A stretch of 64,000 bases of DNA from the IMG/VR virus record IMGVR_UViG_3300037804_000222, positions 26,772 to 90,771 of that record; one strand, given 5' to 3'. The DNA comes from a virus. Each line of letters begins with the position of its first letter. Position 1 is the first letter of the stretch. Made by a program: the position numbers and the translations under genes. Below, in pieces: positions 11,290 through 20,376 of this stretch. The notes beneath the pieces are model-generated. The model did no database searches, had not been told where the DNA came from, and saw only the letters and a program-made list of their open reading frames with translations.

Positions 11290-11460
11290 TTTCACCTATA
11301 TTTCGCCAAACCCACCTACTATAGAAAGTTATGGCAGGTTATAACCTGATAAAATGTTCGTGAACGTACGGCTATAGCCTGATGAGATTGTTCAGTGGAC
11401 TGAACAATTGTCCAGTTTTTTGATTAATAAACTGGACATTTGTCGCTTTTTTTGCGACAG
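11290..11460. repeat. array of heterogeneous short palindromes, block 1
   Basis: CAGGTTATAACCTG (11335-48), GTTC-GT-GAAC, GGCTATAGCC, ATTGTTCAGT-GG-ACTGAACAAT (11387-408), TGTCCAGTTT-N10-AAACTGGACA (11409-38), TGTCGC-T7-GCGACA (11441-59). Confidence 0.85.
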
Positions 11461-11461
11461 T

Positions 11462-11625
11462 TGGCTGTAGGAGAAGGATTCGAACCTCCACGTAGTAGTT
11501 AGCTAAAGGACAGATTTTAACCAGGGCGCTGCGCAGCTTGGTGGTCAATCCCATTATCCTTAGTTTATCCTATAATCTACACCCCCGAGACAGGAGGGTA
11601 TGTCTGCCAATTTCATCACCCTACA
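11462..11625 (-). tRNA. atypical tRNA-like RNA, GTC (Asp) anticodon, 92-nt variable arm
   Basis: Acceptor TGTAGGG/TCCTACA + G-CCA; class-II-type D arm ATG-AAATTGGCAGA-CAT; anticodon arm CCCTC-CTGTCTC-GGGGG; T arm GGAGG-TTCGAAT-CCTTC. Confidence 0.8.
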
Positions 11626-11629
11626 TTAA

Positions 11630-11990
11630 ATTTGTACGTATTCCGTACATATATAGGTTTTCCTTTTTGTTAACGTCAACAAAATGGTTTACTCCGTCAG
11701 TTGCTCCGTCAACAAAAGGGTTTACTTATAGTTACAAATGTAAACAACTTAGTATAACTTTTAACTATACTTAAAACTTATTGCTCTATTCCCCAAATAA
11801 ACGGTTTTTCTGCGATTGTAATCACCAAATAACCGAAAATGAAGCTCAAGCTAACCTTAATTGTGTCTCATATTTGATACAAAATGAGCTTTATTGGTGC
11901 AAATATGCACCACATCTGCACCACATTAGGTTTGTTTTGTTACAGTTTGACAATCATTTTACCCTTGTTTTGATACACAAACAAGTTTGA
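11630..11990. repeat. array of heterogeneous palindromes and short tandem repeats, block 2
   Basis: TGTACG-TATTC-CGTACA (11633-49), TTTTGTT-AACGTC-AACAAAA (11665-84), CTCCGTCA x2 at 12-bp period (11692/11704), GTTTAC-N14-GTAAAC, AGTATA-N9-TATACT, TGGTGCA-AATA-TGCACCA (11895-912), TGCACCACAT x2, CTTGTTT-N8-AAACAAG. Confidence 0.8.
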
Positions 11991-12248
11991 TTAGAATCTT
12001 TTTACATTATCAGACAATGACTCTATGAAATTATTTACGCTATCGTACAGCTTTTTCTTTTTCTGCTCTACTTCTGCACATCTTTTTTGGTAATAGGTTA
12101 TAGCTTCAACGTAAGCATCTTGCTCTGTTTCTGCTCCCATAGATAAGTTCATTCCTCTTGTTTCATCATACAACCAATAGCCATCCTTACACTCTGATAT
12201 AGTTAGGCTATCTGTTAGTTTTATGTTACTTATTGCTTTACTTGCCAT
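11991..12248 (-). CDS. hypothetical protein embedded in the palindrome array
   Basis: 85-aa ORF with an A-rich leader; GYWLYDETRGMNLSM motif. Confidence 0.7.
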   Translation of the reverse strand: MASKAISNIKLTDSLTISECKDGYWLYDETRGMNLSMGAETEQDAYVEAITYYQKRCAEVEQKKKKLYDSVNNFIESLSDNVKRF

Positions 12249-12259
12249 TTTATTTAGCT

Positions 12260-12561
12260 TTTAGTATGTACCAATTTGGTACATAATTAAGTGGTATGTC
12301 GGGATTTCCGACTAGTTCAATCTTAGTAAAATGTCCCAATTATTACCTATTTTCGGTACTTCTGGCGAATTTTTACTAAGATTCTTGATTCGCGAATTGC
12401 AAATTAATCTACAAGAATCACAATATAATATGAATTGTGCATGATTTGTCATGCGTTAACCCCATAAACGGTACTTAATGTATGAGAACTCATACAATAA
12501 TGTGATTTTCGTAGTATTTATATGTAGAAACATACAACTGGTGATGATTTGTCACTGGTTG
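12260..12561. repeat. array of heterogeneous palindromes, block 3
   Basis: TATGTACCAA-T-TTGGTACATA (12265-85), GTCGG-GATTT-CCGAC (12298-312), AATCTTAGTAAAA/TTTTACTAAGATT (12319-31/12371-83), TTGATTCGCGAATTGCAAATTAA, GCATGA-TTTG-TCATGC, TGTATGAG-AA-CTCATACA (12479-96), AACTGGTGA-N7-TCACTGGTT (12536-60). Confidence 0.85.
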
Positions 12562-13056
12562 CTACATACTAGTTTCTATCCAAAGTCCTAAAGCGGTTCC
12601 TAATAAAAAGACAAGAAAGAAAACAAATACAATAAAAATAACTCTAGATTCGTTTATTCCCTCATTTGTTCCCTCATTTAATCCCTCACTTATTCCCTCA
12701 TTTGGTTTTTTATACGCTTCTTTTGGAGTTAAAGGTTTTTTAAAAATATCCTCATTTGTTCCCTTACGTAGTATCCCAGCTGTTTCACATAGCTTCAGGA
12801 ACTTATTATACTCGCCATCTTTATTGATAGTGTTAGGTGTTTGGGAATCGCCTGTATCTATTTCGCCAAATACTGATGTATTTATAACGACAACCTCCCC
12901 CATATTACGTTGGTAATGTTCTTCTAAGTCTACAAAGGATTCTCCACATTTGCAATAATCCATTGACCATCTTTTAGCGCTATCGGATTGCTGAATACTA
13001 TCACAGTACCCACATCTCCATTCCAGTAGTGTTCTCATGTTTTCTTTTTTAAGCAA
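12562..13056 (-). CDS. mosaic protein: Zn-ribbon N-terminus, NEG(I/L/T) 12-bp repeats, C-terminal TM helix
   Basis: CGYC...CKCG; NEGISEGLNEGTNEGIN; VIFIVFVFFLVFLLGTALGLWI. Confidence 0.6.
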   Translation of the reverse strand: MLKKENMRTLLEWRCGYCDSIQQSDSAKRWSMDYCKCGESFVDLEEHYQRNMGEVVVINTSVFGEIDTGDSQTPNTINKDGEYNKFLKLCETAGILRKGTNEDIFKKPLTPKEAYKKPNEGISEGLNEGTNEGINESRVIFIVFVFFLVFLLGTALGLWIETSM

Positions 13057-13483: not shown

Positions 13484-13620
13484 TCAAAGAGGCAGGAGTC
13501 GAACCTGCATGAAGGACATCACAGCCTTTATGTGGACTTTTACCACTTCCGAATTACCAAGACTCAGTTAATTACTCCGCTTCTTTAGAAATTCTGCGTT
13601 TACCGTTTCGCCACTCCTTG
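13484..13620 (-). ncRNA. tRNA-like RNA (Leu-type body) with expanded anticodon and variable arms
   Basis: Acceptor CAAGGAG/CTCTTTG + A73; TG-GCG-AAACGGTAAA-CGC D arm; GCAGG-TTCGACT-CCTGC T arm; GAATT/AATTC stem encloses 34 nt instead of 7. Confidence 0.75.
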
Positions 13621-13653
13621 ATGCGCAGCACTCACGCAGCTTGCTCTCGTATT

Positions 13654-13792
13654 AGACCAAACGATAATTTTAGTTGTAGTATCACGTACTACGAGTGGTC
13701 TTTGTAAGAAAATAGGCTCTCAGGTTTTGTTTCGAAGTCTTACGGTGCAGTATCTGAGATTATTAGAGTTTAACTGCGTTCACTCATGCCTA
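13654..13792 (-). ncRNA. structured RNA with pseudoknot upstream of the tRNA-like element
   Basis: TAGGC/GCCTA closing a junction with GAGT/ACTC and TCTCAG/CTGAGA stems; loop-loop GCAGT/ACTGC; then AGACCA/TGGTCT enclosing GTAGTA-CGTGA-TACTAC. Confidence 0.5.
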
Positions 13793-13802
13793 ACCTGTAC
13801 CC

Positions 13803-18462: not shown

Positions 18463-18508
18463 TAGTAAAGCATGCAGGAATCGAACCTGCATTTATACCA
18501 TATGCTTT
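18463..18508 (-). ncRNA. tRNA minihelix-like element (acceptor + T arm only)
   Basis: AAAGCAT-ATGGTATAAAT-GCAGG-TTCGATT-CCTGC-ATGCTTT-A-CTA. Confidence 0.65.
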
Positions 18509-18512
18509 ATTT

Positions 18513-18705
18513 AAAGAGCTGTGCATAGCTCTTAGTGTTAGTTGCCAACCTAACTCTTGGCTTTTTTTGGAGCACATCCGATGCACCGAATGTTTCTGGA
18601 TTTGATAACTAATATTGCTATTATAGCATCTCACCATTACAGCTTCTTTGTTTGAGGTGAAGTATCTGCAGCCTTCTCATTACACAATATGTGTAAAGTA
18701 TTGTC
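18513..18705 (-). ncRNA. hairpin-rich non-coding segment
   Basis: AAGAGCT/AGCTCTT, GCCAA/TTGGC, TGCTA/TAGCA, TCACC/GGTGA, TTACACA/TGTGTAA stems. Confidence 0.4.
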
Positions 18706-18883
18706 AAGCAACCTCTGTTTTTATTGATGTTAATTCAAATGGCTCTTTATATCCTCTAGCTCTTAACTCTTCTATTAAGAATCTTTCTTCAAATTGTAGT
18801 TGAAAGTGAGGTTCTTTTTCTTTTTTCTTAGTCTTTATTCTTTTTCTTACGGTTAAAAGAGAGTTTAATAATATGTCATCCAT
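18704..18883 (-). CDS. small hypothetical protein (59 aa, not in track)
   Basis: MDDILLNSLL...LIEELRARGYK. Confidence 0.55.
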   Translation of the reverse strand: MDDILLNSLLTVRKRIKTKKKEKEPHFQLQFEERFLIEELRARGYKEPFELTSIKTEVA

Positions 18884-18916
18884 GACTTAATAGATTTATG
18901 TTAATGAAAAGAAGGG

Positions 18917-19111
18917 CTAAAATAGCCCTCCATAATTATCTTTCTTTGCGTTACAACAAATGTCGCAACTACATCCTCCAGATGCTGTTCTTGGTTGAGG
19001 ATTAAATCTCATAAGAGTATCTGTAGGGTTCTCAATCATATCTAGTACTTCTAATACTTTATGATTTCTTTTTCTTTTGTAAAGTCTGCGTAAAGCTTTT
19101 AGCTTCTTCAT
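18917..19111 (-). CDS. hypothetical protein
   Basis: 64 aa, CSCDICC motif. Confidence 0.55.
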   Translation of the reverse strand: MKKLKALRRLYKRKRNHKVLEVLDMIENPTDTLMRFNPQPRTASGGCSCDICCNAKKDNYGGLF

Positions 19112-19204
19112 TATTTCTTTGGCTTAGTTTATACTCTTTGATTGCTTTTTTTACTCTGATATAATTCTCGTATCTCATAGGTATGAAGATTAATTAAGAC
19201 TTAA

Positions 19205-19440
19205 AAAGTATCGGCTTTGGGTTCAGGTACCGAATATGGAGACTGATTCCACATCTAAATGTCAATATAGCTCACCAGCCTTATCAAGTTATTATCCCGC
19301 CATTGTGTCGCCTATGCTCTCTTGCAAACGTTGGTTGTATTGAGCTCCTCAGCTTTACTACAACTGATTATTACGTTACACAATAACTTACAACTATCGG
19401 GATAACCAGAGTATGGACAAGGAAATACCAACTCTGTGCG
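19205..19440 (-). ncRNA. large structured RNA, 3' part
   Basis: CAGAGT/ACTCTG; nested TTATCCCG/CGGGATAA, TTGTGT/ACACAA, AACGT/ACGTT, GTTGTA/TACAAC, AGCT-GAGG-AGCT; AGGCTGGT/ATCAGTCT; TCGGT/GCCGA then T-run. Confidence 0.55.
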
Positions 19441-19454
19441 CATTCTTTATTTAG

Positions 19455-19598
19455 TAATTGTTATAATAGCCATACCACGAAGGTCATTTACTTTAGATTA
19501 CTCTATTAAGAAAGTTCGTTATGATCTAATCTATTCGACTTTCATAGTTTATTGGTAGGAGAGTTTCGCTCCAGTATCTAATGCTATTACAACAATTA
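19455..19598 (-). ncRNA. structured RNA closed by a 16-bp stem
   Basis: TAATTGTTGTAATAGC/GCTATTATAACAATTA; internal GGAG/CTCC, GAAAGT/ACTTTC, TTAGAT/ATCTAA, possible TACCA/TGGTA pseudoknot. Confidence 0.6.
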
Positions 19599-19601
19599 TC
19601 T

Positions 19602-20056: not shown

Positions 20057-20278
20057 CTATGCCCATATGATTCCGCCATCTGCGATGGTGCTAATCTCAG
20101 GCACTTCAGTGCCTTTAGCAAATTCGTCGCTACAGTCGCCTTCTAGGCGGATGAAGCAAGTATTTGCATTGGTAGAGACCACTCGGTCTTTACCAAGAAT
20201 TTTGCGAGTTTCGAACCCGCTTAAACCTACGACAGTTTGACCGTCTTTAACTTGAACCCAAAAACATTTAGTTTTCAT
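20057..20278 (-). CDS. hypothetical early protein
   Basis: 73 aa, own terminator, higher GC. Confidence 0.65.
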   Translation of the reverse strand: MKTKCFWVQVKDGQTVVGLSGFETRKILGKDRVVSTNANTCFIRLEGDCSDEFAKGTEVPEISTIADGGIIWA

Positions 20279-20376
20279 AATGTAGCAAAATTTAGTTAGG
20301 GGGCATTAGTGCCCAAAACTTAGAGGGGGTGGGGTTATATAAGTGGTCTACTCTCTCATTTCCGTAAACAAAATTT

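Follow-up and report, generated by a model that had tools for sequence, protein, structure and literature searches.

What is the tRNA-like RNA of 164 nucleotides (nt) that is encoded on the minus strand at positions 11462-11625 of a stretch of viral DNA, and what might a phage gain from it? The window, the whole stretch of 64,000 nt analysed here, corresponds to bases 26772-90771 of the 90.8-kb IMG/VR record IMGVR_UViG_3300037804_000222, whose completeness is estimated at 97%. An original prediction, made from the letters of the window, had described a tRNA-like RNA with the anticodon of aspartate (Asp), held it to be probably not an ordinary decoder, and proposed for it either a tRNA-scaffolded functional RNA or a decoy for anticodon nucleases or synthetases. 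The comparative analysis bears out the observation, except for one helix and the drawing of the arm tip: the gene is real and intact, and it belongs to a family of more than 240 phage and bacterial copies, which is found neither in Rfam nor in the literature searched, where no description of it was met. The structure of the family and its co-distribution with the amidotransferase GatCAB and with AsnC-type regulators are shown below. Our preferred reading, to which we assign about even chances, is that this gene, of an expressed type, yields a non-decoding RNA which would be charged by aspartyl-tRNA synthetase (AspRS) and acted on by GatCAB, the phage copy being an auxiliary gene.

The limits of the gene, encoded CCA included, were drawn by direct reading and from homologues, and direct reading of the minus strand bore out the complete cloverleaf with G73-CCA and a GTC anticodon that had been predicted. 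The acceptor stem has 7 base pairs (bp), formed by UGUAGGG (11619-11625, opening with U1 and G2) and UCCUACA (11466-11472); the 3' end of the RNA (11462-11472) is completed by the discriminator G73 (11465) and the CCA (11462-11464). U8 and G9 follow the 5' strand, and then the D arm AUG-AAAUUGGCAGA-CAU (11600-11616), whose 3-bp stem and 11-nt loop are of class II and Leu-like, as had also been proposed. The anticodon-like hairpin CCCUC-CUGUCUC-GGGGG (11582-11598) presents GUC at 11589-11591, followed by U37 and C38. The T arm GGAGG-UUCGAAU-CCUUC lies at 11473-11489. Anticodon and T stems have 5 bp each, and the elbow is intact, with G18-G19 and a UUCGA T loop that fits the UUCRA pattern.

Between anticodon hairpin and T arm extends a variable-arm hairpin of 89 nt (11492-11580). 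Its conserved helices are P1 (GUAG/CUAC), P1b (UAG at 11572-11570 with CUA at 11498-11496) and P2 (CUAAGGAUA/UGUCCUUUAG). The arm had previously been drawn as 92 nt, 11581-11490, a drawing that overlooked P1b. Two of its helices, GTAG/CTAC and CTAAGGATA/TGTCCTTTAG, covary throughout the family and are retained here. A third, GAUUGACCA/UGGUUAAAAUC (GATTGACCA/TGGTTAAAATC in the RNA), is private to the window copy and its 95%-identical homologues in the contigs L003 and L004: the TGGTTAAAATC strand falls within a 14-nt insertion that is lacking in a third related contig, L002, and in other members, and the GATTGACCA strand belongs to a family-wide motif, GGGNNGACCAC, which itself has no conserved partner.

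Common tools pass over this RNA. ARAGORN, run with or without its intron option, called no tRNA at 11462-11625, and no family of Rfam 15 reached its threshold on the 164 nt; the tRNA model RF00005 scored 15 bits against a cut-off of 29, with a partial and wrong alignment. Transfer-messenger RNA (tmRNA), YrlA and other catalogued tRNA-like RNAs gave no Rfam match, and ARAGORN reported no tmRNA. The folding energy is unremarkable (minimum free energy z = +0.69), and the structure is supported by homology and covariation instead.

The closest homologues occur in L002, L003 and L004, phage contigs whose helicases are 87% identical to that of the source phage. The element is 95% identical in L003 and L004 and 77% identical in L002, where the arm tip is shorter. 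Compensatory changes distinguish the T stems and pair 7-66 of these three copies from those of the window copy; none of the three encodes CCA, and their flanks are unrelated to those of the window. Relatives with helicase identities of 74-75% do not contain the element, which thus appears as an accessory gene in a fast-changing region. More widely, the 17-nt anticodon hairpin was found in more than 119 IMG/VR contigs, a lower bound, many of them from phages of 100-330 kb, and an 18-mer of the D arm added four members with a slightly different hairpin; these also have U37, at a loop that the pattern had not fixed. Other routes were less productive: IMG/VR searches with the neighbouring protein of 85 amino acids (aa) and with the exact 28-mer of T arm and acceptor gave no match, nor did megablast of the region against INPHARED, and distant blastn of the element matched only an unannotated 636-kb uncultured phage. 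The stable RNAs species 1 and 2 of T4 were considered as a counterpart and found unsupported, no cultured phage having matched.

In total, 102 phage cloverleaf copies were extracted (72 unique, 116-208 nt long), and 59 phage sequences, the window copy among them, were aligned with MAFFT at a mean column identity of ~59% (alignment A3). The RNAalifold consensus consists of eight helices, in which paired cells make up 98.3%, a share that falls to 42-53% once the partners are displaced by 1-3 columns; compensatory changes occur in 22 of 36 pairs, against 6-9 after such displacement, and none of 500 shuffles reached the observed covariation score. Such changes affect 5 of the 7 acceptor pairs (U1-A72 and G2-C71 being invariant in 59/59 sequences), 2 of 3 in the D stem, 4 of 5 in the T stem, and 8 of 15 in the variable arm (family helices 4-7, with 91-100% of cells paired), where P1, P1b and P2 are all included. 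The anticodon hairpin does not vary and hence cannot covary, an invariance due in part to the search pattern, which fixed the hairpin sequence. This strong covariation supports the predicted tRNA-scaffolded functional RNA.

The family is also chromosomal. The hairpin pattern was present in more than 120 contigs of GTDB species genomes, again a lower bound, and all but one belong to Bacteroidota, including Chitinophagales, Saprospiraceae, Cytophagales and Cyclobacteriaceae, often with two or three copies in tandem. The 137 bacterial copies extracted measure 107-209 nt, save one partial extract of 78 nt, and share the base of the arm and the invariant positions of the phage copies. Among the canonical copies, 55 from phages and 77 from bacteria, U1-A72, G2-C71, U8, G9, A14, G73 and C74 never vary except for a single bacterial A1, and AAAUUGGCAGA is the commonest D loop in phages and bacteria alike. 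The window copy has the complete set of family traits, namely the CCCUC-YUGUCUC-GRGGG hairpin, U1-A72, G2-C71, G73-C74, the D loop AAAYUGGCAGA, and in the arm P1, P1b, P2, an AUAAA/CUAA internal loop and the GGGNNGACCAC motif. Across the family the variable arm measures 35-130 nt and no member has a short variable loop; the RNA is therefore not a class I tRNA with an insertion. A full CCA is encoded in 3 of the 102 phage copies and in 19 of the 137 bacterial ones.

The genomic contexts of the two groups are distinct. In 69 of 113 bacterial loci, a divergent gene for a 156-aa Lrp/AsnC regulator lies ~150 nt upstream of the RNA, a layout that mirrors asnC-asnA of Escherichia coli; this neighbour belongs to the chromosomal context and is absent from the source phage. 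In phages, ordinary tRNA genes, mostly for Ser, Met and Cys, stand within 500 nt of 55 of 101 copies, and the RNA is presumably made and processed like a tRNA. A FastTree analysis of 186 copies over 141 columns required 2 changes of the phage/bacterium label, compared with ~50 when labels were shuffled, with the phage copies forming essentially two groups. A clade made up of phage copies alone (local support 97%) includes the window copy, whose nearest bacterial counterpart comes from a metagenome-assembled genome (MAG) of Cyclobacteriaceae.

The variable arm carries two further conserved features. The first, recognised by its sequence conservation, is a distal-loop motif at 11540-11552, which reads GGGAUUGACCACC in the window copy and GGGNNGACCAC in the family consensus; among unique copies it is kept in 67 of 73 from phages and in 51 of 133 from bacteria, and no conserved pairing partner was found for it in the family. 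The base preceding its GAC varies freely (U, A, C, G), and at most 3 bp with the GUC anticodon are conserved; since GAC and GUC are both invariant, covariation is uninformative about this pairing. The second feature is found in phages. A perfect palindrome of 6-10 nt occupies the arm tip in 60 of 67 phage copies, against a mean of 4.7 nt in shuffled sequences, and it begins exactly 2 nt past GACCAC in 47 of them; in bacterial arm tips palindromes occur at chance level. The phage palindromes differ in sequence, and their centres are always self-complementary (UGCA, GGCC, GCGC, AAUU). In the window, the perfect 10-nt palindrome GCUGCGCAGC (11537-11528) stands at +4 from GACCAC and assigns the copy to the phage type. 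It is this palindrome that had been drawn as an apical hairpin GCTG-CG-CAGC, which is impossible, as it would close on a 2-nt loop. Since a hairpin needs no self-complementary loop, the tip suggests loop-loop or duplex dimerisation of the RNA.

Several features argue against a role in decoding. U33 and a purine at position 37 are near-universal among elongator tRNAs. The pyrimidine noted earlier at position 37 proved to be U37 in the window copy and in every copy gathered. Position 33 is U in the window RNA and G or C in 4 of 11 bacterial RNA-positive genomes (G004, G256, G296, G354), in which G34-U35-C36 and C38 are kept. Moreover, a canonical tRNA-Asp(GTC) is co-resident with the RNA at 16 phage loci. 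Together with the arm of 35-130 nt, these traits support the suspicion that this is not an ordinary decoder: the RNA looks unfit to read codons and is probably not used for that purpose. What stays constant is what E. coli AspRS reads, G10 excepted: of its identity set, G34, U35, C36, C38, G73 and G2-C71 are all present, and position 10 is an A. One bacterial genome, G137, has two tandem copies (L349:1485-1595 and 1705-1815) in which the loop CUGUCUC is replaced by CUUUCUC, with the UUC anticodon of glutamate, on an unchanged body with U1-A72 and G73. Glutamate is the other precursor on which GatCAB acts.

The link with GatCAB is strengthened by the first pair of the acceptor stem, for U1-A72, invariant in the family, is a published determinant of GatCAB substrates (PMC4206432). 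Why many Bacteroidota keep this enzyme although they possess the synthetases for asparagine (Asn) and glutamine (Gln), AsnRS and GlnRS, has been left open in the literature; the published explanation is the synthesis of Asn on tRNA-Asn (PMC4206432). An even sample of 251 genomes of the phylum contained 18 with the strict RNA pattern, and these were compared with 32 pattern-negative ones. All 18 positives have GatB, and all 18 have an AsnRS above the cut-off, against 8 of the 32 negatives; GlnRS is present in 17 of the 18. With both synthetases available, GatCAB is not needed in such genomes for ordinary charging. G004, a pattern-negative genome with both AsnRS and GlnRS, turned out to hold a variant copy of the RNA. 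A sharper comparison took 43 GlnRS-positive Bacteroidia genomes, sampled at class level, and a looser RNA pattern. Of these genomes, 11 have canonical GatB, 3 an atypical fused GatB-like frame and 29 no GatB; the RNA is present in exactly the 11 genomes with canonical GatB (11/11) and in none of the other 32. Thus, among the genomes searched, where GatCAB is not needed for Gln-tRNA it is found only together with the RNA. The three atypical genomes (G285, G319, G346), which are GlnRS-positive and RNA-negative, have a GatB-like domain of 355-363 bits inside open frames of ~1110 aa, and their GatB looks fused or repurposed.

From its parts, the RNA reads as a chimera of known tRNAs, with the anticodon loop of tRNA-Asp (U37 in place of A), the acceptor end of tRNA-Asn (U1-A72, G73), a class II body and a long arm. 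We infer from this composition and from the distribution that it is charged, amidated and excluded from the ribosome, and that the phage benefits. RNase P and 3' trimming would excise it from a transcript as they do a tRNA, and the AspRS of the host would aspartylate it through G34, U35, C36, C38, G73 and G2-C71. The U1-A72 pair would then make it a substrate, or a scaffold, for GatCAB, and the conversion of Asp to Asn on the RNA would be kept off the ribosome by U37 and the bulky arm. A phage copy might act as an auxiliary gene that provides more of the RNA during infection, and the palindromic tip may allow phage RNAs to pair as dimers. In its fullest form, which we put forward tentatively and consider less likely than its falling short somewhere, the proposal is that Bacteroidota use an off-ribosome carrier for Asp-to-Asn conversion, with a rare Glu/Gln version, shielded from translation by U37, a U33 that can be dispensed with and the giant arm. 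Their phages would have captured the gene and passed it between unrelated lineages, and the dimerising tip that they added would boost or redirect the supply of Asn during infection. Amino acid usage gives a weak hint of a higher demand in phages: Asn use is 6.4% in the source phage and 5.1% in the bacterial loci, and for Asn and Asp usage the source phage and other RNA-bearing phage loci show 6.2-6.6%, the bacterial loci 5.1%.

A number of results weigh against charging and amidation as the role of this RNA. In the phylum sample all 32 RNA-negative genomes have GatB as well (50/50 in total), so that co-occurrence at the level of the phylum is uninformative, and the Fisher test for the association in the GlnRS-positive set (p ~6e-8) takes no account of phylogeny. 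G003, an RNA-positive MAG that is probably incomplete, yielded no GatB and no GlnRS. The idea that the RNA stands in for asparagine synthetase was abandoned, as AsnB-type genes occur in 16 of the 18 RNA-positive genomes. The same fate met the idea that the tRNA-Asn of such genomes cannot be a GatCAB substrate: in three of them it has U1-A72 and G73, and the published explanation, Asn made on tRNA-Asn, could therefore still apply. G10, an identity element of E. coli AspRS, is replaced by A or U across the family. The source phage encodes neither an AspRS-type enzyme nor AsnC, and no phage protein accompanies the RNA consistently, the top neighbour cluster being present at 26 of 91 loci and having no informative domain. 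Finally, the proposed mechanism leaves the GGGNNGACCAC motif and the palindromic tip unexplained.

Among the alternatives we judge one unlikely and yet the strongest of the four considered. According to it, the RNA is no Asn carrier but a regulatory or scaffold RNA that binds AspRS, GatCAB or both, for instance as a transamidosome scaffold, or that reports how far Asp and Asn are charged, and the phage copy retunes the amino-acid signalling of the host. Some tRNAs do serve as scaffolds in the transamidosome of Thermus. The AsnC neighbour and the co-distribution with GatB fit this view equally well; a separate carrier is not strictly needed where canonical tRNA-Asn already has U1-A72, AsnB is encoded in most RNA-positive genomes, and the invariant single-stranded GGGNNGACCAC resembles a binding site. 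However, G73, C74 and the geometry of acceptor and T arm show conservation as strict as that of a chargeable tRNA, and neither a target nor a pairing partner for the motif was found.

A decoy or sponge, rather improbable in our estimate, would mimic the anticodon loop of tRNA-Asp and soak up a nuclease, tRNA-guanine transglycosylase or another reader, protecting translation during infection. Colicin E5-like enzymes cut GUN anticodons, and changes in the anticodon loop let phage tRNAs escape nucleases, variants which the U37 loop resembles. In this respect, the anticodon hairpin is invariant down to the sequence of its stem, phage copies are numerous and located in tRNA arrays, and the phage-specific tip would be a phage-specific adaptation. 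On the other hand, the family is chromosomal in Bacteroidota, usually beside an AsnC-type regulator and often in tandem, which fits housekeeping metabolism better than defence; genes for defence or nucleases show no consistent linkage, and a decoy of the anticodon loop has no need of strict U1-A72 and G73. The nuclease decoy of the original prediction gained no positive evidence and fits poorly with the AsnC-linked chromosomal copies and the GatCAB co-distribution. The decoy for synthetases came nearer, as the link with AspRS is part of the preferred reading, in which the RNA would be a substrate of the enzyme.

Slightly less probable again is a true elongator tRNA with an extreme arm, reading GAC and GAU and inserting Asp, Ser (in view of the class II body and G73) or, after amidation, Asn. 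The complete cloverleaf, intact elbow, U33, GUC and encoded CCA of the window copy would suit such a function, as would the location in tRNA arrays of other phages and the higher content of Asp and Asn in the phage than in bacterial loci. The anticodon-loop evidence given above speaks against it: U37 occurs everywhere where elongators have a purine, several bacterial members have lost U33, and a canonical tRNA-Asp coexists with the RNA at the 16 phage loci. Furthermore, we know of no class II tRNA whose arm is not 4 to 8 times shorter, and no recoding is evident in the window, where long open reading frames (ORFs) remain open under translation table 11. Least credible, and rejected on the sequence evidence, is a functionless tRNA gene broken by an insertion such as a neighbouring palindromic element or an intron, since, for all the palindrome-rich and fast-changing intergenic setting and the silence of tRNA finders, the arm helices covary across the 59 phage sequences at a mean column identity too low for recent copies of one mobile element, the RNA is conserved between bacteria and phages, the flanks in L002-L004 are unrelated, and pairing is conserved in an arm whose shortest version is ~35 nt, with no short-arm member from which an insert had been removed.

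Comparison with known systems helps to place the charging and amidation proposal. In the indirect pathway of Thermus, Deinococcus and Bdellovibrio, a non-discriminating AspRS and GatCAB together produce Asn-tRNA. The tRNA-Asn of this pathway is first aspartylated and then amidated, as is proposed for the RNA, and shares with it an acceptor end of U1-A72 and G73, which is also that of tRNA-Asn in RNA-positive genomes. The RNA differs from it by GUC in place of GUU, a class II body, the arm of 35-130 nt, U37 and an unconserved U33. Bacterial tRNA-Asp is a class I tRNA. The anticodon loop of tRNA-Asp (GUC), CUGUC-C, agrees with that of the RNA at 6 of 7 positions, the difference being at 37, where A37 is replaced by U37; the RNA further departs from it in U1-A72 for G1-C72, A or U for G10, a class II D arm with its 3-bp stem, and a giant variable arm of 89 nt in the window. 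Class II tRNAs, especially tRNA-Leu (within RF00005), resemble the RNA in their 3-bp D stem and in a variable arm that forms a stem-loop from position 44/45 onwards, and the 11-nt D loop AAAUUGGCAGA is close to that of E. coli tRNA-Leu. Their arms have 10-25 nt, whereas that of the RNA has 89 nt with internal loops and conserved motifs; it also has G73 instead of the A73 of tRNA-Leu, the GUC anticodon of a class I amino acid, and a score below the Rfam threshold. Body features thus fit class II, and anticodon and oversized arm do not.

Other likenesses are functional or architectural. Among tRNAs that work away from the ribosome, the non-proteinogenic tRNA-Gly of staphylococci, used in cell-wall synthesis, is a dedicated carrier charged by a normal synthetase and kept from translation, as is proposed here; amino acid, enzyme partners and architecture differ, the tRNA-Gly being of normal size. 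tmRNA, YrlA and viral 3' tRNA-like structures likewise combine tRNA mimicry with an extra structured domain, whereas the RNA keeps all four tRNA arms and has its addition in the variable region.

If the preferred reading is true, the family represents a new class of tRNA-derived RNA, a carrier for amino-acid biosynthesis and not for decoding, which occurs in a major bacterial phylum and which the phages of that phylum have acquired as an auxiliary gene. The retention of GatCAB in many Bacteroidota that have AsnRS and GlnRS would then be explained, and a further host function would join the list of those imported by phages. Standard tRNA and RNA-family tools miss the family, and hundreds of phage and bacterial genomes hold this highly conserved RNA gene unannotated; it could be annotated with a covariance model derived from alignment A3.

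The source phage is, on its sequence matches, a marine crAss-like phage. Its family-A DNA polymerase best matches those of crAss-like phages, at 28% identity, and the relatives of its helicase come mostly from marine metagenomes; the G+C content of the window is 34%. The intergenic DNA around the RNA (11290-12710) is crowded with short unrelated inverted repeats, of which 12 pairs were listed. A terminator-like hairpin (11649-11633) lies 7 nt before the 5' end of the RNA, and another hairpin (11441-11461) follows immediately after its encoded CCA. The original prediction had placed the RNA in the midst of this palindrome array. To judge from the related contigs, array and RNA are separate features, because the homologues in L002-L004 sit in different flanks.

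A scan for acceptor and T-arm pairings over both strands of the whole 90.8-kb phage gave 8 candidates. Three of them have both a UUCGA T loop and a T stem rich in G+C, all on the minus strand of the replication module: the 11462-11625 element, an element at 13484-13620 and a minihelix. The 13484-13620 element (minus strand) is a second tRNA-like RNA of 137 nt, with an acceptor stem, a 3-bp D stem and a T arm, no encoded CCA, and ~68 nt of additional hairpins in place of the anticodon arm. Its score of 33.4 bits with the Rfam tRNA model is the sole match above threshold in the window. Its flanks are conserved in L002 and L004, relative to which the element is cleanly inserted; imperfect direct repeats, ACGAGAG...GCGTGAGT, stand on either side of it. 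Homologues exist on two further IMG/VR contigs (L345, L346), in which wobble changes preserve pairing.

The minihelix (18467-18508, minus strand) comprises an acceptor and a T arm in 42 nt, AAAGCAU...GCAGG-UUCGAUU-CCUGC-AUGCUUU-A. It is found at the equivalent place in at least 15 related phages, with inserts of 0-57 nt and both stems fully compensatory, as in the variants GAAGCAU/GUGCUUC with AUGAG/CUCAU and GAAACAG/CUGUUUC with AGAGG/CCUCU; it may be a processing or 3'-end signal. Directly upstream of it on the minus strand, ~1 kb (18640-19600) is devoid of ORFs of 70 aa or more and may correspond to a long non-coding transcript ending in the minihelix. The intron mode of ARAGORN joins part of this region into a spurious tRNA-Ala with a 341-nt intron. 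The program also calls a 96-nt tRNA-SeC(tca) at 20197-20292 (minus strand), which has a weak, A+U-rich structure, overlaps the ORF 20057-20278 and is probably a false positive. A non-coding segment immediately following the helicase gene (13625-13793) is 80-87% conserved in the contigs L002-L008, whose intergenic DNA nearby is otherwise unrelated; the segment may have a regulatory role or encode a structured RNA.

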